A stretch of 32,000 nucleotides of DNA from Methanothermobacter thermautotrophicus str. Delta H (lineage in GTDB: Archaea; Methanobacteriota; Methanobacteria; Methanobacteriales; Methanothermobacteraceae): the NCBI RefSeq assembly GCF_000008645.1, contig NC_000916.1, forward strand, positions 1,260,001 through 1,292,000, read 5' to 3'. Below are positions 12,411 to 29,512 of this stretch, one piece after another. The stretch's first letter is position 1. Each line of letters starts with the position of its first letter. The position numbers were made by a program, and so were the translations under genes. The notes beneath the pieces were generated by a model. The model was not told the DNA's origin. It searched no databases and saw only the letters and a program-made list of their open reading frames with translations.

Positions 12411-13859
12411 ATGAACGAGATAATCGGAAAATTTGCAAGGGAAGGGATCCTCATAGAGGATAACGCCTACTTCCGGCTCAGGGAAATGGATGATCCTGCA
12501 AGCGTGTCCTCAGAACTCATAGTTAAGATAAAGAGCAATGGTGGTAAATTCACTGTTTTAACCTCTGAAATGCTTGATGAATTCTTTGAAATAGATAACC
12601 CCGCGGAGATAAAGGCCAGGGGTCCCCTCATGGTCCCGGCGGAGAGGGACTTCGATTTTGAGGTGATAAGTGATACAAGTAACCGGTCCTACACCAGTGG
12701 TGAGATAGGGGACATGATCGCATACTTCAACAGCCGCTACAGCAGCCTGAAGAACCTTCTCAGTAAGCGCCCTGAACTGAAGGGCCATATTCCAATTGCT
12801 GACCTCCGGGGGGGAGAGGACGTCGTCAGCATCATCGGGATGGTCAATGATGTGAGGAACACCAAGAACAATCACAGGATTATTGAACTTGAGGATGATA
12901 CCGGCGAAATCAGTGTTGTTGTGCACAACGAAAACCATAAGCTCTTTGAGAAGTCCGAGAAAATCGTGAGGGATGAGGTTGTGGGTGTCCATGGAACCAA
13001 GAAGGGAAGGTTCGTGGTTGCCTCCGAGATATTCCACCCTGGAGTCCCCAGGATACAGGAGAAGGAGATGGACTTCTCAGTTGCCTTCATATCAGACGTT
13101 CATATAGGAAGCCAGACCTTCCTTGAGGACGCCTTCATGAAATTTGTGAAATGGATAAACGGGGATTTCGGTTCAGAGGAGCAGCGAAGCCTTGCAGCGG
13201 ATGTTAAGTACCTGGTGGTTGCGGGTGACATCGTTGATGGCATTGGAATCTACCCTGGACAGGAAAAGGAACTCCTTATAAGGGACATCCATGAACAGTA
13301 TGAGGAGGCTGCAAGGCTGTTCGGTGATATAAGGAGCGACATAAAGATCGTTATGATCCCGGGAAACCACGACTCCTCAAGGATAGCGGAGCCCCAGCCA
13401 GCAATACCCGAGGAATACGCAAAGTCCCTCTACAGTATCAGGAACATAGAATTTCTCAGCAACCCATCCCTTGTGAGCCTTGACGGTGTGAGGACCCTCA
13501 TATACCATGGCCGTAGCTTTGATGACATGGCCATGAGTGTCAACGGGCTCTCACATGAAAGGTCAGACCTCATAATGGAGGAACTCCTTGAGAAGAGGCA
13601 CCTTGCACCGATATATGGTGAGAGAACACCGCTGGCATCTGAGATAGAGGACCACCTGGTCATCGATGAGGTCCCACACGTACTCCACACCGGCCATGTT
13701 CACATAAATGCCTACAAAAAGTACAAGGGAGTGCACCTCATAAATTCAGGGACCTTCCAGTCCCAGACAGAGTTCCAGAAGATCTACAACATCGTCCCAA
13801 CCTGCGGCCAGGTCCCGGTGCTTAACAGGGGTGTGATGAAACTCCTTGAATTCAGCTGA
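12411..13859 (+). CDS. polB: DNA polymerase D (Pol II) small subunit DP1, Mre11-like phosphoesterase/proofreading exonuclease
   Basis: 482 aa with calcineurin-like phosphoesterase motifs [30 protein letters not shown], preceded by an OB-like region. Confidence 0.9.
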
Positions 13860-14930: not shown

Positions 14931-15920
14931 TTAAAAAGCTTTTGGTGTCCCTGAAACTGCAAGTGCAGCTGTAACTCCAGAGGACTTTGTTTTTCTTATT
15001 ACAAGTTTTGAATCCTTACCTGCACTGCTGAGGGCTGCTGCTTCACATACACTTCCCACACCAAACTTTTCATAGACGAAATCAGAAAATGAGAGAGTAT
15101 TCTGGGATCTGAGTTCCTGGGGCCCTATGAATTCAAGGGGGACTCCTAGGAGCCTGGCAGCCTCCCTGATACCATCCTCATCCCTTTTCATGTAGCCTGT
15201 TGCAATGGCATCAAGCCGTTCGGGGGGTATTTTCAGCAGTTTCAGGGTTTCCCTGATGAGACCGATTACTCTATCTGATCCAACCCCCCTCCTTGTCCCT
15301 ATCCCCATTGAAAGCTTGAGGGGTGCAAGCCTCATGACCCTTGAGTTGCAGTGGGCCCTCACAACCTCGTCCCCCTCCGGGACATAGGTGTAGGTTCTGC
15401 GCATATCATCATCAATCAGGGCCTCAAGGTCCCTGGAGGAGTGAAGTTCAACCCGGTGCCCCTGGATAATTGAGGAGTTGAAGTGCCTGATAAGGTGGGG
15501 GTCAAGGATCCTGTAGAAGTACCTCGCTGCAAAGGTATCAATACCAACAAGGCCATTGACGTCTGTGGATGTTGTTATAACGGGATTAGCACCTATCAGA
15601 CCTGCAAGTTTAATTGCAAAGTCATTGGCACCCCCCGCATGACCGGAAAGTAGACTTATAACATTTGACCCCTTTTCATCAACAACCAGGACCCCAGGGT
15701 CCGATAGTTTGTTATTGATCAGTGGTGCTATCTTCCTCACCATTATACCTGCAGCCATTATACCCACTATAATGTCGCTTTCAGCGAAAACATTCCCCAG
15801 ATCCATGTTCCGGTGCATGACTTCAACCGAAAGAATAGTCGGGTCCCGGAGGAGTTTCTCCCTCATCTCCCCTGCGAGTCTTCTGGCCCTCTCTGTTAGT
15901 GTGAGTATTGTAACTATCAT
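14931..15920 (-). CDS. cbiG: Cobalt-precorrin-5A hydrolase
   Basis: 329 aa with the N / middle / C CbiG architecture (GIMAAGIMVRKIAP.., LLSGHAGGAN, C-terminal GVGSVCEAAAL). Its ATG overlaps the cbiB stop (ATGA). Confidence 0.8.
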   Translation of the reverse strand: MIVTILTLTERARRLAGEMREKLLRDPTILSVEVMHRNMDLGNVFAESDIIVGIMAAGIMVRKIAPLINNKLSDPGVLVVDEKGSNVISLLSGHAGGANDFAIKLAGLIGANPVITTSTDVNGLVGIDTFAARYFYRILDPHLIRHFNSSIIQGHRVELHSSRDLEALIDDDMRRTYTYVPEGDEVVRAHCNSRVMRLAPLKLSMGIGTRRGVGSDRVIGLIRETLKLLKIPPERLDAIATGYMKRDEDGIREAARLLGVPLEFIGPQELRSQNTLSFSDFVYEKFGVGSVCEAAALSSAGKDSKLVIRKTKSSGVTAALAVSGTPKAF

Positions 15921-16810
15921 GGTATCACCAGCATTACCCCTGCTGCAGCTAACGTGAACAGTATCAGGGTCAGGGAACTCAGCTTCACGGCATCAAGAAG
16001 TTTTTCATTGTCCAGTCCATCACATGGATCCCCGAGGACGTACACGCCCGGCTTTTCCAGCTGAACAGAAAGGGCCCCTGCCGCTGCAGCCATGGTGAAA
16101 CCTGAGTTGGGGCTTGGAGTACGCCGGGCGTCCCTCAAAAGAATCCTGAAGGATCCCCTCCAGTTCATGCCGAGTAGGAGGGCTGCAGGGACCATCAGGA
16201 CACCGGTGATTCTTGATGGGATGTAGTTGAGTATATCATCCAGCCTTGCAGGGAACCATCCTATGTCTCTGTTCTCGCTGTCAAGGTAGCCCACCATAGC
16301 ATCAAGTGTATTGACCACCCGGTAGAGGAAGGCGCCTGGAAGGCCCAGGAGGATGAAATAGAAGATGGGGGCTGTCACCGAATCCGTGATGTTTTCTGTG
16401 AGTGTCTCAATCGCCGCTGAGGTTATCTGTTCATCTGAGAGGGAAGTGGTGTCCCTGCTGACGAGCATTGAAAGTTTCCTCCTGGCATCTTCAATGTCCT
16501 CCTTGAGGGATCCTCCAACCTCCAGGGCAGAGGTTACAAGCATCCTTATGGATATCACCGCTGAAAGTAAGATGGAGGATATAATGAGATTCAGGGGGTC
16601 TTGAAGATGGTTGATAAGGAACAGGGGGAGTGTGAAGGGCGCTGCAACTGCAATGGTGAGTATTATGCCGGATATACGGCTGTTTCCAAGGATGTTCCGC
16701 ATCCATTCCACTGCTGACCCCATCCAGACCACCGGATGAAGCCGGTGTGGTGGTTCCCCAATGAGTAGGTCAAGGATTACAGCAAGCAGGAGGACTGAAA
16801 CTTCACTCAT
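15917..16810 (-). CDS. cbiB: Adenosylcobinamide-phosphate synthase (CbiB/CobD)
   Basis: MSEVSVLLLAVILDLLIGEPPHRLHPVVWMG is the canonical CbiB N-terminus, and GAGGAG precedes ATG 16810. The track ORF to 17197 adds ~129 aa antisense to the 16907..17374 gene and is rejected. Confidence 0.85.
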   Translation of the reverse strand: MSEVSVLLLAVILDLLIGEPPHRLHPVVWMGSAVEWMRNILGNSRISGIILTIAVAAPFTLPLFLINHLQDPLNLIISSILLSAVISIRMLVTSALEVGGSLKEDIEDARRKLSMLVSRDTTSLSDEQITSAAIETLTENITDSVTAPIFYFILLGLPGAFLYRVVNTLDAMVGYLDSENRDIGWFPARLDDILNYIPSRITGVLMVPAALLLGMNWRGSFRILLRDARRTPSPNSGFTMAAAAGALSVQLEKPGVYVLGDPCDGLDNEKLLDAVKLSSLTLILFTLAAAGVMLVIP

Positions 16811-16906
16811 GTACTCCTCTTTTAACTGTGCTCTGTTATATATCTGAGACATGTAATAATTTTTATCTATATATTCATGAAGGGAGATAGTTATAGCCGT
16901 GATAAC

Positions 16907-17374
16907 ATGTCCCAAGAAATGATCAAGAAATGGCTTGATGAAGAGGGGTTCCTCCGCATGGAGGTTCCTGACGAAAACGCCAGATTTCACTATGTTGTGA
17001 ACTACCCTGAGGATCACGTTATCGATATAATCCAGCCCGCCGGAAAGGATGACATGATTCTCATAGCCTGCGCAACCAGTGTCAGTCCAGAGCACCAGGC
17101 AGGGATCCGGGCGCTCAGCATGGAGAAGAGGACTGAGTTCATATGGAAGGTCAGGTTCACGCTTAACCGGTTCGGGGTTGATTTCCAGCTCGACCATCCA
17201 GAAAACGTCCTTAACAGTTACCTCGTGACAGATGAAATATTCTTCGACGGCCTTTCAAAGGACAGATTGATTTCAAGTATAAAAAATGTCTTCAGGGCAA
17301 AACTGCAGGTCATGTGGATGATACAGGAACGTTTCGGTGAAGAAAGACCAGAACATGATAGCATGTATGTCTAG
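16907..17374 (+). CDS. Conserved archaeal hypothetical protein (DUF2299-like, YbjN-type fold suspected)
   Basis: MSQEMIKKWLDEEGFLRMEVPDENARFHYVVNYPED. The family assignment is tentative. ATG 16877 is an alternative start. AT-rich TATA-like sequence at ~16855-16872 favours 16907. Confidence 0.55.
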   Translation: MSQEMIKKWLDEEGFLRMEVPDENARFHYVVNYPEDHVIDIIQPAGKDDMILIACATSVSPEHQAGIRALSMEKRTEFIWKVRFTLNRFGVDFQLDHPENVLNSYLVTDEIFFDGLSKDRLISSIKNVFRAKLQVMWMIQERFGEERPEHDSMYV

Positions 17375-17655
17375 GGGAGGTCCGGTTCAACTGTAAGGAC
17401 TCCCTGTAACCATTTTTCTTATGTGGGGGATGGCTTTCAACTGTAAAATCATTTGGGTTTCCTGTTTCTCTGGGTGTGGGTCAATGGTTTCAAGTGTAAA
17501 GTTTTTTCTCTCGTTTAGTTGCCCGAGTGAGAGAGGTCAATTTCAACTGTAACCAGCGAAACTTTATTCAGGCTTAACAGAGAGAGGTCAATTTCAACTG
17601 TAACTTTATTATTAAAAATTTGTCTAAAATAGTGACATCAGGTTCAACTGTAAAA
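17374..17655 (-). repeat. Left ORB arm: six elements read on the minus strand (consensus TTACAGTTGAAnnnnnnCCTCYC)
   Basis: Elements at 17374-17396, 17425-17447, 17476-17500 (this one has the CACTTG core), 17529-17553, 17580-17604 and 17632-17655. Core-to-core spacings are 50, 53, 53, 51 and 50 bp. 17529-17553 and 17580-17604 are identical over 25 bp (gagagaggtcaatttcaactgtaac). Confidence 0.9.
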
Positions 17656-17706
17656 GGTTCTTTCCTGGTTCGGCCTGGTTTACAGAGCGAAAAATAAAAA
17701 CCTTAA

Positions 17707-18039
17707 ATACACTTGAAATGAATGTCTCAAAAAATCGAGATCAATTAATACTAACTTACACTTGAAATGAATGTCTCCCTTACAGGTCATCAGAACCATG
17801 GTCAGATTACACTTGAAATGGATGTCTCCCACATCTAGCCATGAATCAGAGAACTGGATAAGGAACAGCAGGATTTTTTACACTTGAAATTCATCCCTCA
17901 TGAATTCCCATCGAGGATCCAGATGGTTACACTTGAAATAGATGTCCCACATATATTATTATCGATCAACCTGATTTTAATAAAAACTTTTATCTAATAG
18001 TTGGAATAAGAGAATTTACACTTGAAATCTACCACACCC
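17707..18039 (+). repeat. Right ORB arm: six elements on the plus strand (consensus TTACACTTGAAATGRATGTCTCCC)
   Basis: Elements start at 17707 (aTAC variant), 17756, 17807, 17878, 17927 and 18016. Spacings are 49, 51, 71, 49 and 89 bp. Confidence 0.9.
17951..18000. other. Candidate duplex-unwinding element (AT-rich tract)
   Basis: By hand count, 41 of 50 bases are A/T (atatattattatcgatcaacctgattttaataaaaacttttatctaatag). It lies in the widest inter-ORB gap (R5-R6). A second tract, 17601-17630, has 27 of 30 A/T. Confidence 0.4.
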
Positions 18040-18179
18040 TCAAATCAGGGAATGGTAGTACGGGGCGCTGCCAGCTGAAAAGGTCATCCTGATATTGAAT
18101 TTCACTGTATCCAGATTTTAGGGCCTTTACTGAAATTTGATGCAGCAGTTTTCTCTAAAAATTTAGTTGAAGTGGTACT

Positions 18180-19328
18180 ATGAACATTTTTGATGAGATA
18201 GGGGACAAAGAATCTGTTTTTAAGGATAAGAAATATCTTGATCACAGGTTCCTTCCTGACAGATTACCTCACAGGGAGGAGCAGATACGATCAATAGCCA
18301 AGTACTGGGTCGAGGCCCTCAATGGAGTGACACCTCCAGACATTACAATCTATGGTAAAACAGGTACAGGGAAAACTGCCGTTGCAAAATTTGCCATGAA
18401 ACAGCTGAAGGAGGCATCAAAGGACTGTGACGTGAATATAAGGACTGAATACATCCGCTGCACAGATTACACAACAGAGTACCAGGTCATAGCAAGATTA
18501 TGCCAGCAGCTCGGTCGTGATGTCCCCTACCGTGGCTGGACAAAGGCTGAAATCGTGAACACCTTCAGGAACATGTTCAAGAAAAACGCCTTTGGCCAGG
18601 ACATGATACTCATGGTCGTACTTGATGAAATAGACATACTCCTCAGAAATGATGGAGATGGACTCCTGTACACCCTCACAAGGACAGATAATGTCTCCAT
18701 TTTATCCATAAGTAACTACGTGGAATTCAAGAAATTCATAAAACCCCGGGTCAGGAGCAGCCTCAGGGACAGGGAGATAGTTTTCCCACCCTATGGGGCC
18801 CAGCAGCTTGTTGATATCCTTGAGGAGAGGTCAAAGATGTCCTTCAAGGAGGGTGCCCTTGATGATGATGTCATACCCCTATGCGCAGCTCTGGCAGCCA
18901 AGGAGGAGGGTGATGCAAGGTACGCCCTGGACCTCCTCAGGACAGCAGGTGAAATTGCCGATGAAAGGGACTCAGATAAAGTCCTGGGGGACTTTGTGAG
19001 GGAGGCCAAGGACTACATAGAACACAACAAGATCACAGACATAATACTGACACTACCGAGCCAGCAGCAGAGGGTGCTTGAGGCCATACTCTACCTCACA
19101 AAGAGGAAGGAGGAAATAACCTCCGGAAGGCTTTATGAGGTCTACAAGGAAATAGCAAAGGGGGACTCTGTTTCCTACAGGAGGATATTTGACTTCATAA
19201 ACGAGCTTGAAATGCTCGGCCTCATATCCACAAATACTGTTTCACGGGGAAGGGGAAAGGGACGTACAAATATCATAGACCTGCAGTGCGAAACCTCCCT
19301 CCTGGAGGACTCACTCTGGGGTGTTTAA
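18180..19328 (+). CDS. orc1: Orc1/Cdc6 origin-recognition / helicase-loader AAA+ protein
   Basis: LPHREEQ N-terminal motif, Walker A GKTGTGKT, Walker B VVLDEID, sensor regions, and a C-terminal winged helix (..[22 protein letters not shown]). Directly adjacent to the ORB array. Confidence 0.95.
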
Positions 19329-19331
19329 AGC

Positions 19332-19337
19332 TTTTTT
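19332..19337 (+). terminator. Oligo-T tract after orc1
   Basis: TTTTTT lies 4 nt after the orc1 stop, in the 24-bp convergent gap with pyrB. Archaeal termination commonly uses T-runs. Confidence 0.4.
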
Positions 19338-19352
19338 CTAGAGCCATCCCGC

Positions 19353-20291
19353 TCAAACTATCTTCTGGTTTTCAGATCCTCTCCTCTCACTTATCAGCAG
19401 CCTCAGGAGGGCCATCCGGACCGGCACACCATAGAACGCCTGTCTGAAGTACATGGCCTGTGGGAGGGAATCCACCTCTGGGGATATCTCATCTATCCTT
19501 GGGAGTGGATGCATCACAATCAGGTCCCTATCAGCCACAGTGGATCCATCTATGTGGTAGGCTCCCCTTATCCTTGAATACTCCTCAGGGTCAGGGAAAC
19601 GTTCCTTCTGTATCCTTGTAACGTAGAGGACATCCACCTCATCTATGACATCATCAAGCCTTTCTGTCTCTTTAACTTCAACACCAGCCCTCCTCAGATC
19701 ATGTATGATGTTATCAGGCATTCTGAGGACGGGTGGTGATACGAAGCTCATACTGGCACCGAAAACAGCCAGGGCATAGGCCAGTGAGTGGACAGTCCTC
19801 CCGTACTTGAGGTCACCAACCAGTGCAACCCTAAGGGAACCTATCCTCCCGAAGAACCTCTTCATGGTGTAGAGGTCCAGGAGGGTCTGTGTTGGGTGCT
19901 GCCCGGCACCATCCCCTGCATTTATCACTGGAACATCCACAACATCTGATATGTAACGTGCTGCACCCTCCAGGTTGTGCCTTATAACTATGGCGTCAGA
20001 GTAGGCTGAAAGCATCATGGCGGTGTCAGCCAGGCTCTCACCCTTAACGGCAGATGTCGCCCCCGTATCTGCAAATCCAACAACGTCCCCTCCCAGACGC
20101 TTCATGGCAGTTTCAAAGGATAGACGTGTCCTTGTGGATGGCTCATAGAACATCATGCCAAGTATCTTTCCTCTGAGGGCGCTGGAGGATTTTTCTCCCG
20201 ATGCAAATGGCTCCATCTTCTCGGCTTCCCTGAGGATGAACTCGATATCCTCCCTCTTAAAATCCTTTATTGAGATAACGTTTTCAAACAT
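19353..20291 (-). CDS. pyrB: Aspartate carbamoyltransferase catalytic subunit
   Basis: Motifs [22 protein letters not shown] and HPLPRIDEI. Length 312 aa. Confidence 0.95.
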
Positions 20292-20333
20292 CAGTACCCC
20301 TTCCAGATTTTCATATATAACCCTATAACTTCC

Positions 20334-21071
20334 TTAAATCTTTCTCATGAAGGTTAGATACCCTGTATGGCCGACCATCCTTGTTCTGGGCCTTGTACCC
20401 TGCTTTCTGACCTCTATTTCACGTTCAATGGTTTCAAAGGTCCTTATATCTGCAAATCCAACCTTCAACCCTATCCTGTGTATCAGCTTCACCTGTTCAA
20501 TGTAGGGGTTGTAGAAGACTGCCCAGCCACCCCTGAGTAGGGAATCATGGACATCCTCCATCAGCTCCCAGGGCCTGGGCAGATCAAGGAAAACCAGGTC
20601 GAGGTCCTCCTCCTCTATACCCTCCTTTATATCCCTGTTCTTGACCTCCACGTTTTTGAATCCAAAGGCTGCAATGTTCTTCTCTGCTATCTCAGCAAAG
20701 TCCTCACGTATTTCATAGGTTGTGACGTGCCCTGATTCTCCCACCAGATTGGCAAGGTACATTGCAACTGTACCCGCACCGGTACCCGCATCAACAACCC
20801 TTGAACCTTCAACTATCCCTGTATATGCACATATCATTCCTATGTCCTTGGGAAGGAGTATTGAACACCGCCTCTCCATGAGTTCAAGGTAATCTGAGAG
20901 TCCGGGTTTAAGGACGTAAATCTCCCTGCCAAGGTGGGTTTTGAGGACATCCCCGGGCCTGGAATCCTCCAGGGTTTCTGCTTTGATGATCCCCATGTCA
21001 CTCTGAAAGTCCTCTCCTTCTTCCAGGAGATATTTTTTACCTCTCTCATCCATAAGTATGCGCAAGTCCAA
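20334..21071 (-). CDS. trmI: tRNA (adenine-N1)-methyltransferase, TrmI/Gcd14 family
   Basis: SAM-binding VVDAGTGAGTVAMYLA, DLVFLDLPRPWE and the Gcd14-type N-terminal beta domain. The start is uncertain: TTG 21071 abuts GGTGAT, and TTG 21065 or ATG 21053 are alternatives. Confidence 0.8.
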   Translation of the reverse strand: MDLRILMDERGKKYLLEEGEDFQSDMGIIKAETLEDSRPGDVLKTHLGREIYVLKPGLSDYLELMERRCSILLPKDIGMICAYTGIVEGSRVVDAGTGAGTVAMYLANLVGESGHVTTYEIREDFAEIAEKNIAAFGFKNVEVKNRDIKEGIEEEDLDLVFLDLPRPWELMEDVHDSLLRGGWAVFYNPYIEQVKLIHRIGLKVGFADIRTFETIEREIEVRKQGTRPRTRMVGHTGYLTFMRKI

Positions 21072-21076
21072 TCACC

Positions 21077-23293
21077 TTACTCCTTGAATTGATATGTGGC
21101 TTCATCGGGTCCCTTAAATTCTGCCTCAATGACCCTCCTGATTTCCGAAGCCCTCTTTGCACCTATACCCTCCACGCTACGGAGTTCCTTCTCTGAGGCG
21201 TTCATAACACCTTCAACTGATCCGAAGGCTTCCAGGAGCCTTTCAGCGTACTTTGAACCGATATTTGGCAGGGATTCCACGATGAAGAGCTGCTTCTCCC
21301 TGAGGGTCAGTGGCTTCTTATCCGTGCGAACACGCATATCAGGCCTGCCTTCCCTCTGCTCCCTTATGGCTATCCTCCTTATCATTGCAGCGGTATCCTC
21401 GGCTGACCTCGTGGGGATTACAGGTATTCCAAAGTCCACAGCAACAGCTGCAAGGGCACCCCTCACGGCGTCCGGGTTTATGAATCCTGAATAGAGGTCA
21501 TCCCCCTCTATGATCATAACAGGCCTTTTGAAGTTTTTGACCATCTCCCTTGCCTGTTTATACAGTCTTTTATCTATAATTGAACCAATAAAGTCCTGTG
21601 TTGTCTTCCTCTCAATTATAGTATCCTCGCTTATCTGATAGTCACCAACTGCAAGGGGTTTGAGTTCAAAATCCACTCCTATCTTTTTGAGTTCCCTGAG
21701 GACCCTTGAGTTGACCTCCCGGGAATCAGCATAGATGAAGGGTCCCTCCCCTGAGGGTTCCATTATGGGGTTAACCTCCACGTTAACTGACCCGCCCCTG
21801 AGGTTCTCCTTCATGGATCTCTCCTTCCTGATACTTGAGTAGTAGTATGCCTCGTCGCGGGTCTTCTCTGTTATGAGGACAACCATGCGGCCCTTCCTCT
21901 TCCTCCCGGTCCTTCCACGTCTCTGTATCATCCTTATCTCAGAGGGAACAGGTTCATACATCACCACAAGGTCCACCGAGGGGATATCTATACCTTCCTC
22001 AGCGACACTGGTTGATAGGAGCACGTCATGGTTCCCCATGCGAAATGATTTTATTATATCCCTCTGCTGTTTCTGGGTGAGGCCCTTCTCTCCGCTCCTG
22101 CTGTTCTGTCCATAAAATTTAACTGCGTTGATACCTTCACGTTTGCATCTCTGGTATATCTCCTCAAGGGTGTCGCGGAACTGTGTGAACACTATTATCC
22201 TTGCTTCATCTCCTTTAAGTTCCCTTTTCAGTATCTCCATTAGCCTGTCAAGTTTAGGGTGTTCCACCCCTGACATCATGGCCCTTCTTGTGAGGTGCAT
22301 GGCCCTTGTAAAGTCTGGATCTGCCAGGAGACCCTTAGCAGCCTTTGTTTTCTTCTCCTTTAGCCGGAGAAGGTACTGGTGGAGTGGTCTTATGCCCTGT
22401 GTTTCAAGAAGTTCAAGGGCGTGTTCCACGTTTATACAGGATGCAAGGAGTGATATGGCCCTGTAGCATGCCCTTGGAGGGCTCGTTGATCGCGCTATCC
22501 TGTTCTGGACACGGCCCCTTGCCTTCAGAAGGTCCTTCTTACCCACACTGATGGTGTCTATAACACCGAGGTTTTTAAGCATCTTCAAGCGATTTTTAAG
22601 GACCTTCCTAAGGAGTTCCCTTATATCCTCAAGCTCCGGTGTCATCCTGACCTTTACCCATTCTATTTTTATGGGCTTGAGGTAGGGGCGCACATCAGGG
22701 TCCCCCTCTGTTTTCACCACAACCTCATTCATGAAGAGGTTCTCACAGACAGTTTTTATCTTATCCTCATCTGCACCCGGAGACGCTGTGAGTCCCAGTA
22801 TGAGGGGGTGCCTGGCGTTCTGTATATAATTAGATGCAAGGAAGACGTATGAGTATGATCCAACTGCGCGGTGGCATTCATCGAATACGATGAGTGAGAC
22901 GTCCCTGAGGTCGTATCTTCCAGCCAGGATGTCTGATTCAACTGTCTGGGGCGTGGCGGATATTATCTGGGATTTAATCCACCGTTCTTTTCTCTCTTCA
23001 GGTTTTATGCTACCTGTAAGGGATGTGCAGGTTGCAAGCATGAACTCCCTGAAGCTCTCCTCATGCTGTATGGCCAGGGGTTTGCTGGGTGATAGGATGA
23101 GTACCTTTGAGCCCCTGTATTTCCTGAGTCTCTCTGCAGCCACAAGGACAGCCACAACCGTCTTTCCGAGGGCTGTGGGGGCGACTATCATTGAGTTGCC
23201 CTTTCTGATGACATCTGCTGCCAGCAGCTGCTGATAGGTCCTTGCCTCTATTTTCTCTGGCTTTATGAGGGGGTGCTCTATGTACCTTGCCAT
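21077..23293 (-). CDS. hef: Hef: fork-structure helicase fused to an ERCC4/XPF-type nuclease (FANCM/XPF homologue)
   Basis: Helicase motifs [30 protein letters not shown]4 nuclease motif [20 protein letters not shown]-terminal tandem HhH ([25 protein letters not shown]). No SD before the ATG, and a TATA-like ttaaataaa lies ~29 nt upstream, so the mRNA may be leaderless. Confidence 0.9.
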
Positions 23294-28114: not shown

Positions 28115-29512
28115 TCAGGGACCGGTCTGGGTCCCCAGTATCTCATCAACAAGCTGCAGAAAACTCTCCATATCCCTGTAGGGCACCATCGCCCCGGCCG
28201 CTATATCATGTCCTCCCCCGGTACCACCAAAACTTGCGGCGGCATCCCTGAGGGCAACCCCGAGGTTAACACCCCTTTCAACAGCTGGCCTGGTTGTCCT
28301 TGCAGATACCTTAACGTGCTGATCCATCCGTGAAAGTCCGAGGAGGGGGATGTCAGGGTCAAGAATTTTGAGGGAGAGTGATATGCTTGCTATGGTCCCC
28401 ATGATCCCCTTGAAGGCCTTATCCTCACTGTAGATGTACTGCAGGTTCTCCAGGGTGGTGGAGCCCTCCCTCCTTATCCATGCAAGGCCCTTCACAAGCT
28501 CCTCACGGTAGTTCTTCTGGAGCTCGAGGGCCACATCAAGGGCACCTTCCCTTTCACCAAGGCACAGTCCGATTCCTATGCCATATTTACGGTTCTTTCC
28601 ACAGGCATCAAGCACCCCTGCAATGTCAGAGAGGTCACCTATATTCCGGAATTCCCTGCTCGTGAATACCTCTCCGAATATCTCAGGGTTTATCCTTGTA
28701 AGTTCATCCCTCAGAACATCCCTCTCCTCAGGGGACAGGTCAGGATATTTAACGCCATAGGATACGCCTATATTCTCAAGGAAGCCCATAGAAGCCTCCA
28801 TATCCCCGGTGAGGCCAGGCAGGGCCGGGTTGAAGGTGTATGCAATGGAACGGTAAAGGGGCTCGGTGTACCTTGATGCCAGCTTGAGGTCACTGTGGAC
28901 CTGAAGGACACCCTCTTCAACAGCCTCCTCCATGATGAACCTGTTTGCACCGGTGAATCCGTCAGTGTACTGCATGTCCCCCAGGGCACCCACAAGGGCA
29001 AGGGGGGCGGTCTTTCTGTTAAGGAGTCTCGTGGCCAGGTAGGCCGTTCCAGATGCACTGAGGTCCCTGCTACCATCAAGACCATGCAGATGAGGGTTTA
29101 TGTGAACAACATGGGGTCCTGCCTCGGATTCAGAGGGCTGATGATGATCAGCGACGATGACATCACCCTTCAGGCGGGATATCTCCTCAAGGTAGGCGCT
29201 TCCCATATCACAGAAAAAGAATAGGGAGTATTTCTCTCCCGACAATTTCTTAATGAACTCCTTCTTCAGCCTCGAGAGGATGGAGATGTGGAACTGACCA
29301 TTCATGGATGAAATGGCCCTTGCAACAACTCCTGCGGCTGATAGACCATCTGCGTCGTTGTGCGAGATGATCCTTATTATGTTTCCCCTTTCAAGGTGCT
29401 CCTCAAGGACCTTTGAGGCCTCTGCACCCCTCTTGAGAATTGAGTCGGGGAGTTTACTTGACGAGGAGGGCTGCTTTCTGTGGGTCATATCTCCATCCTT
29501 CAGGAAGGACAC
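28115..29512 (-). CDS. DHH/DHHA1 phosphoesterase, archaeal RecJ / GAN (Cdc45-like) nuclease
   Basis: DHH motifs [17 protein letters not shown] and VADHH, plus DHHA1 [13 protein letters not shown]. The track start GTG 29512 and ATG 29488 (MTHRKQ) both overlap the 3' end of the S15 gene. Confidence 0.85.

Follow-up and report, generated by a model that had tools for sequence, protein, structure and literature searches.

The 32-kb stretch of DNA analyzed here (32,000 nucleotides, referred to below as the window) belongs to the chromosome of Methanothermobacter thermautotrophicus Delta H and contains a repeat-filled gap between a DUF2299 gene and the orc1/cdc6 gene. The question raised by this locus is whether the gap is a replication origin and, if so, whether that origin is new. 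In our judgement the gap is almost certainly the place on the M. thermautotrophicus Delta H chromosome where replication begins (oriC); its array has 13 origin recognition boxes (ORBs), 12 of them within the gap. The element is already known, being the published oriC of this organism (described by Lopez et al., 1999, by Capaldi and Berger, 2004, and by Majernik and Chong, 2008).

The repeat array and the identity of the locus

The gap at positions 17375-18179 (805 bp) is the largest stretch of the window without open reading frames (ORFs) of at least 100 amino acids. The motif TTACASTTGAAA, searched with at most one mismatch, was found 13 times in the 32-kb window, and all of these matches lie inside 17271-18027. 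The expectation from 100 dinucleotide-preserving shuffles was 0.22 +/- 0.48 matches. For comparison, 80 related loci of the Methanobacteriaceae were collected by an Orc1 protein scan with one genome per species; the best protein, from a Methanothermobacter metagenome-assembled genome (MAG; locus L001), is 98% identical to that of the window and the rest are 76-87% identical. A 24-nt weight matrix built from 632 sites in these loci, with the window excluded, was used to scan both strands. The matrix found exactly the same 13 sites with scores of 15.3-32.8 bits, and 20 Markov-shuffled windows gave 12.5 bits at most. The next-best match in the window, 20751-20774 on the minus strand (GGTACAGTTGCAATGTACCTTGCC, 12.5 bits), is located inside a methyltransferase gene and is probably a chance match, because its score equals the best one in shuffled sequence. 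Repeat finding gave two direct-repeat families, with six plus-strand copies and five minus-strand copies, and a sixth minus-strand copy recovered as inverted matches.

Thus, inverted ORB pairs are present, with seven sites on the minus strand (left arm, L7 to L1) and six on the plus strand (right arm, R1 to R6):

17260-17283, minus strand: L7, the left arm's outermost site, within the coding region of DUF2299; sequence TTATACTTGAAATCAATCTGTCC; 20.3 bits
17374-17397, minus strand: L6, core 17385-17396; TTACAGTTGAAC followed by the tail CGGACCTCCCC, which abuts the DUF2299 stop codon; 15.3 bits
17424-17447, minus strand: L5, core 17435-17446; 20.1 bits
17477-17500, minus strand: L4, core 17488-17499, with the C core variant, as in the right arm; 21.2 bits
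17530-17553, minus strand: L3, core 17541-17552; 30.9 bits
17581-17604, minus strand: L2, core 17592-17603; 30.9 bits
17631-17654, minus strand: L1, core 17642-17653, innermost left-arm site; 19.3 bits
17706-17729, plus strand: R1, core 17707-17718, innermost right-arm site, beginning ATACACTTGAAAT; 29.2 bits
17755-17778, plus strand: R2, core 17756-17767; 28.7 bits
17806-17829, plus strand: R3, core 17807-17818; 30.8 bits
17877-17900, plus strand: R4, core 17878-17889; 32.8 bits
17926-17949, plus strand: R5, core 17927-17938; 30.1 bits
18015-18038, plus strand: R6, core 18016-18027, orc1-proximal site, 164 bp before the ATG and ending 141 bp before it; 27.3 bits

A preliminary description of this DNA had named the gap as the largest non-coding one in the window, which is correct, the next such gap being only about 250 bp long. 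Its count of six plus six copies holds inside the gap; an extra minus-strand copy at 17260-17283, the 13th, had been missed, and therefore the whole array is 7 + 6. The cores point inward and the tails outward, as had been stated, and the midpoint of the innermost pair (about 17680) falls beside the proposed centre near 17681.

Coding by the gap, for either RNA or protein, was considered and rejected: an Rfam scan of the gap at E<=1 gave no match, and its coding content is limited to five ORFs of 37-50 amino acids, all reading through the repeats. No terminator-like site was found in the gap, and a sigma-70 promoter scan of it has no meaning for an archaeon.

The array is flanked by the following two genes:

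16877-17374, plus strand: DUF2299 gene (PF10061, 163 bits), left neighbour of the origin and host of L7
18180-19328, plus strand: orc1/cdc6 gene (Cdc6-1, MTH1412; TIGR02928, 433 bits; Pfam domains Cdc6_lid, Cdc6_C, and AAA)

The Orc1 protein of the window has exactly the sequence of AAB85889.1, BAM70532.1, and BAZ99413.1 and corresponds to Delta H MTH1412 (Cdc6-1); the source records name the AAB85889.1 protein 'ORC1-type DNA replication protein Cdc6-1 [Methanothermobacter]'. Exactly this protein is encoded by 10 contigs, CP064324.1 (L089) among them. Over its full length it aligns to the DNA-bound Orc1 structures 2QBY_A (3.3e-79) and 2V1U_A (5.5e-75). Within the winged-helix region, arginines 334-335 line up with an arginine pair of 2QBY_A; a downstream RGR is likewise conserved. 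At the DNA level, positions 15180-22328 of the window are 100% identical to positions 1275208-1282356 of CP064324.1, with 0 mismatches over 7,149 bp. CP064324 is the M. thermautotrophicus Delta H reference genome (PMC10579436). Both identities place the window on the Delta H chromosome and make the gap the region upstream of MTH1412.

According to the cited papers, multiple 13-bp mini-ORBs upstream of cdc6-1 have been described for M. thermautotrophicus (PMC1904270), a single mini-ORB is bound specifically by its Cdc6-1 (Capaldi and Berger, 2004, as cited in PMC1904270 and PMC5333045), and fragments with several repeats are bound cooperatively (PMC1904270). Three further sources present the origin of this organism as a single, experimentally demonstrated one, with its firing in vivo credited to Majernik and Chong, 2008 (PMC3984812; PMC4010727; PMC2812497), and the first two call it the sole such origin among methanogens. 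Because both the Cdc6-1 protein and the surrounding DNA are those of Delta H, the gap is the published origin with its Cdc6-1-bound 13-bp mini-ORBs. The preliminary description had proposed an ORB/mini-ORB origin adjoining orc1/cdc6, probably known rather than novel. The Orc1/Cdc6 gene, the Delta H identity, and the published origin work bear out the first point, and the identity with the DNA of the published Delta H oriC the second; the BLASTN-type comparison with Methanothermobacter genomes that it had recommended gave the 7,149-bp match described above.

Site anatomy, conservation, and spacing

Each site consists of a 13-nt core, TTACA[C/G]TTGAAAT, followed by a spaced pyrimidine-rich (C/T-rich) tail, nnA-y-S-T-C-y-C, and comprises about 22 nt in total. 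In the 13 copies aligned in their own orientation, A was found at +16 in 12, C at +20 in 12, and C at +22 in all, with pyrimidines surrounding these conserved tail positions. The repeat resembles the pan-archaeal ORB core, and the conserved G of its GAA(A) half is invariant in the window sites and present in 98-99% of the 632 family sites, for which the consensus is tTTACACTTGAAATnnAyCTCTc. Information content in the family sites is high in the 13-nt core as well as at tail positions +16 and +18 to +21, and therefore the functional unit is predicted to be a bipartite site of about 22 nt, extending beyond a 13-mer. Majernik and Chong reportedly state in their abstract that binding is made more stable by additional conserved sequence on the 3' side of the 13-mer, in keeping with the tail described here. 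Orc1-DNA structures demonstrate a bipartite recognition: the DNA is touched by the winged-helix domain as well as by the AAA+ initiator-specific motif, and it is deformed and underwound (PMC3089459). The predicted bipartite site agrees with this two-module recognition.

The two arms differ in Delta H. Core position 6 is G in five of the seven left-arm sites and C in all six right-arm sites; the left arm mostly has TTACAG with ACCTC-type tails, and the right arm TTACAC with ATGTC-type tails. Arm-specific ORB subtypes for two binding proteins, Cdc6-1 and Cdc6-2, were considered and rejected. Family-wide, 21% of the sites on the minus strand and 14% of those on the plus strand have G at position 6, and in L001 the left arm is a mixture. 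The absence of the asymmetry from L001 and from the family suggests that the arm-specific flavours arose by concerted evolution within arms rather than from two binding specificities.

The same motif, in the order of minus array, gap, plus array, and orc1, was found in almost all of those among the 80 loci for which upstream sequence is present. In a pairwise alignment with L001, identity is 87% for the ORB cores, 61% for the tails, and 41.5% for the spacers. Eleven of the 12 intergenic sites are kept in L001, with R6 at the same position; R1 is absent there (8/24 identical).

The intragenic site L7 overlaps the DUF2299 codons for R-L-I-S-S-I-K-N. It is identical in L001 at 24 of 24 positions, while nearby codons carry silent changes. 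The same codon position holds an ORB in several other Methanobacteriaceae. Several more distant lineages have ATTTCAAGTGTAAA (I-S-S-V-K) or ATTTCAACTGTAAA / ATTTCCACTGTAAA (I-S-T-V-K) at these codons, and the Ser-to-Thr change (AGT/ACT) corresponds to the C/G swap of core position 6 between ORB variants. Other lineages have lost the equivalent site. This pattern suggests a dual constraint, for coding and for binding, in part of the family.

Same-strand distances in the window are 114, 50, 53, 53, 51, and 50 bp in the left arm and 49, 51, 71, 49, and 89 bp in the right arm; 54 bp separate the innermost divergent pair. Across the 80 loci, same-strand spacings form a sharp peak at 51-53 bp, with a per-locus median of 53, and a smaller peak at 71-73 bp. 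Of the 379 spacings of at most 130 bp, 208 fall in the range of 49-56 bp, and at least three such spacings were found in 46 loci. Since the spacers themselves cannot be aligned, it seems that selection maintains this pitch of about 52 bp. Such a length equals five helical turns. Spacing by integer helical turns is not supported, despite the peak at 71-73 bp and a spacer that measures 71 bp in the window and 51 bp in L001: when all same-strand spacings were put into a periodogram, no sharp peak stood out near 10.5 bp, and with the main spacing peak removed the resultant length is at most 0.18 at every period. The pitch therefore reflects a preferred unit length, with helical phasing unproven.

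L3 and L2 are identical over 25 nt (100%; repeat family D2), and one 51-bp unit, L3 or L2, is missing from L084 (GCA_030018185.1, at about 2420-2470), a strain or MAG with an identical Cdc6-1. Six further strains or MAGs of the species, L084 among them, have the 7 + 6 layout with small indels. Copy number is thus polymorphic within the species and the array evolves by gain and loss of units, because two units are identical and one 51-bp unit is missing in L084. The same two observations would fit repeats that are a non-functional relic, whether an array made by tandem duplication or what is left of a mobile element or integrated plasmid replicon. The conservation pattern already contradicts such a relic: motif and polarity are kept where Orc1 is only 76-87% identical and the spacers are fully diverged, and 29 of the 80 loci share by synteny the location between DUF2299 and orc1. 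Furthermore, no transposase or integrase was found near the array. The likelihood of a relic is accordingly next to nil.

Viral contigs of the IMG/VR database were also scanned with TTTACACTTGAAAT, which gave essentially single, chance-like matches. Two IMG/VR contigs of 27-29% GC, L091 (sites at 1223, 7439, and 7521) and L101 (786-1333), have 3-5 ORB-like sites each, which match this motif or come near it, and no Orc1 homologue was found in the examined DNA of either. These clusters might be origins of Methanobacteriales viruses or proviruses that use the host initiator, or chance occurrences in AT-rich DNA.

Candidate melting regions, the cdc6-1 leader, and neighbouring genes

Four segments of the gap other than the ORBs are relevant to the place of melting and to expression of cdc6-1:

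17605-17630, no strand: AT-rich spacer between L2 and L1, 92% AT, candidate for local melting, partly conserved in L001
17655-17705, no strand: central spacer between the inverted arms, 51 bp, 59% AT
17968-18014, plus strand: conserved AT-rich block of low duplex stability, containing the BRE/TATA-like AATAAAAACTTTTATCT (BRE, transcription factor B recognition element); 85% identical to L001
18140-18179, plus strand: conserved leader, the 40 nt directly before the cdc6-1 ATG; 92.5% identical to L001

The last two are the non-coding blocks outside the ORBs that are conserved relative to L001.

Inverted ORBs with an AT-rich centre between them form the textbook archaeal arrangement (PMC12141716), and Methanobacterium relatives have 300-700 bp of 80-99% AT between their arms. 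Comparison with these relatives indicates that the AT-rich centre has apparently shrunk to 51 bp in Delta H. Several points weigh against the identification of the gap as the origin. A classical central AT-rich unwinding element between the arms is not evident, because the inter-arm stretch is only 51 bp long, has 59% AT, and lacks conservation relative to L001; such an element had been expected and was rejected on this AT content and on a duplex-stability scan. The least stable stretches of the origin are instead located within the arms: 17605-17630, between L2 and L1, and 17950-18014 (78% AT), between R5 and R6, both rank with the six 40-mers of lowest stability in the window. The cumulative GC skew over 32 kb has no clear extremum at 17-18 kb, the window being too short for it; Methanobacteriales genomes have a bacterial-like skew (PMC2812497). 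Finally, Cdc6-1 binding and initiation in vivo are cited here second-hand, from later papers.

The lack of a classical AT-rich centre in Delta H would also suit a genuine Orc1-binding cluster that is dispensable or largely dormant, with replication started mostly by recombination or elsewhere. For other Euryarchaeota, origin-independent growth has been reported, in Haloferax and Thermococcus strains without origins (PMC3984812; PMC11005403). The chance of a dormant cluster in Delta H is nevertheless very slight, since the strong family-wide conservation of the ORB cores and of their arrangement argues for continuing selection, and since use of the origin in vivo has been reported, as PMC4010727 and PMC3984812 state.

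Beside R6, the element AATAAAAACTTTTATCT begins 37 nt before the R6 start in the window. The more general form AATAAAAA[C/G]TTTTAT[C/T]T starts 34-37 nt before the orc1-proximal ORB in 11 loci, the window included. Archaeal box A is approximately TTTATATA, and the block resembles an archaeal BRE/TATA element. R6 lies downstream of the TATA-like element, about 24 nt from its centre. With this fixed distance, the transcription start would fall in the first bases of R6, and Cdc6-1 bound there could repress cdc6-1. Autoregulation by R6-bound Cdc6-1 is therefore probable. The block at 17968-18014 may thus be the cdc6-1 promoter or an unwinding/initiation site beside R6 and, by analogy, could be where synthesis starts.

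These features raise a further explanation, namely that the array serves mainly as a transcriptional operator by which Cdc6-1 regulates cdc6-1, perhaps together with DUF2299, and not as the start of replication. Its plus arm is directly upstream of cdc6-1, the start would lie inside R6 behind the BRE/TATA-like block of the 11 loci, and the last 40 nt before the ATG are highly conserved. An operator of this kind is very improbable, however: 13 sites over 780 bp in two opposed arms far exceed the needs of an operator, the layout matches that of archaeal origins, and the cluster is called an experimentally verified origin in the literature (PMC4010727; PMC3984812; PMC2812497). Autoregulation is better regarded as a further role of R6 than as an alternative to the origin.

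For the origin itself, the standard mechanism is the best supported. In the archaeal model, one Orc1 monomer binds per ORB with a defined polarity, and inverted ORBs direct the minichromosome maintenance (MCM) helicase to the intervening DNA (PMC12141716). Each ORB of Delta H would likewise bind one Cdc6-1 monomer. If crystal structures of Orc1 on DNA are taken as a guide, the core would be bound by the winged-helix domain and the tail by the AAA+ initiator-specific motif, and contacts by different domains would give the site its polarity. Cooperative occupancy of both arms would then form two opposed polar nucleoprotein arrays, which, to judge from structures of homologues (PMC3089459), may bend and underwind the DNA. 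As in Sulfolobus, the opposed arms would recruit the MCM helicase to DNA between or beside them. The places of melting and of MCM loading in the Delta H oriC, like the pairing of domains with half-sites, are inferred.

A broader model is more speculative, and as a whole it is rather unlikely. Methanobacteriaceae origins would be built as a regular polar Orc1 array, with a pitch of about 52 bp and two opposed arms forming a cooperative, DNA-wrapping nucleoprotein similar to bacterial DnaA-oriC, and not as a few isolated ORBs. In Methanothermobacter the AT-rich centre would be almost eliminated; melting and helicase loading would occur at the AT block 17950-18014, doubling as the cdc6-1 promoter. 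R6 would couple initiation to expression of the initiator, and the ORB in DUF2299 would be a functional outpost.

One further ORF is located to the left of the array:

15917-17197, minus strand: CbiB ORF, 426 amino acids as an open frame, overlapping DUF2299 by 320 bp

The CbiB domain begins only at residue 130 and other assemblies annotate a 297-amino-acid product; the true start is thus near 16810, with no overlap between the genes. Replication and repair genes were found elsewhere in the window: the small subunit DP1 of DNA polymerase D at 12411-13859 (plus strand), the helicase-nuclease Hef at 21077-23293 (minus strand), and a DHH/DHHA1/DHH-CID protein of the RecJ/Cdc45 (GAN) type at 28115-29512 (minus strand). 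These genes cluster within about 11 kb of oriC.

Significance and comparison with known systems

As a discovery, the locus has little weight, being the experimentally studied origin of a model methanogen. What is modestly new is comparative only: the family-wide architecture, the pitch of about 52 bp, the loss of the AT-rich centre in a thermophile, the TATA-like block at R6, and the intragenic ORB. The value of the analysis is a precisely annotated reference, comprising the map of 13 sites, the bipartite consensus of about 22 nt, the pitch, and the DUF2299-oriC-orc1 synteny. DUF2299 was found upstream of orc1 in 29 of the 80 related loci, and this synteny could mark origins in Methanobacteriaceae. 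Together these features provide a recipe for finding origins in Methanobacteriaceae genomes and MAGs. For Delta H, a strain with a shuttle vector and genetic system (PMC8609365), testable hypotheses are obtained on the dependence on spacing, the place of melting, and autoregulation via R6.

In comparison with the published Delta H oriC, no substantive difference was found: the DNA is the same, the protein is MTH1412, and the 13-bp mini-ORB cluster is upstream of cdc6-1. The oriC of Pyrococcus abyssi and Pyrococcus furiosus is alike in being located upstream of a single initiator gene and in having many 13-bp mini-ORBs. Of its 13 positions, the P. abyssi mini-ORB TTCCAGTGGAACT (PMC1904270) shares 10 with the Delta H core TTACAGTTGAAAT, the G of GAA being one of them. 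In Pyrococcus the neighbouring gene dp1 contains another ORB cluster, as one ORB is inside DUF2299 in Delta H. Pyrococcus differs by a pair of long inverted ORBs of 34 bp, by two AT-rich regions, and by mini-ORBs that are scattered and, when single, bind weakly (PMC1904270). In contrast, all Delta H sites are of one bipartite type of about 22 nt and form two regular arrays with a pitch of about 52 bp.

The oriC1 of Sulfolobus (ORB1-3, Orc1-1) resembles that of Delta H in its polar, inverted ORBs and its position beside orc1-1, and the initiators are homologous over their full length. It has three sites and a highly AT-rich DNA unwinding element (DUE, with the ucm/UBP motif) between ORB2 and ORB3, whereas Delta H has 13 sites and a 51-bp centre of 59% AT. 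Footprinting in Sulfolobus gave no support for a higher-order complex, whereas cooperative binding has been reported for M. thermautotrophicus Cdc6 (PMC5333045).

Bacterial oriC with its DnaA boxes is comparable by analogy only. Both systems have many oriented sites, cooperative filling, an adjoining initiator gene, and probable autoregulation. They differ in that recognition of DNA by the initiator is unrelated in detail, the helicase and its loading mechanism are other ones, and the sites share no homology.

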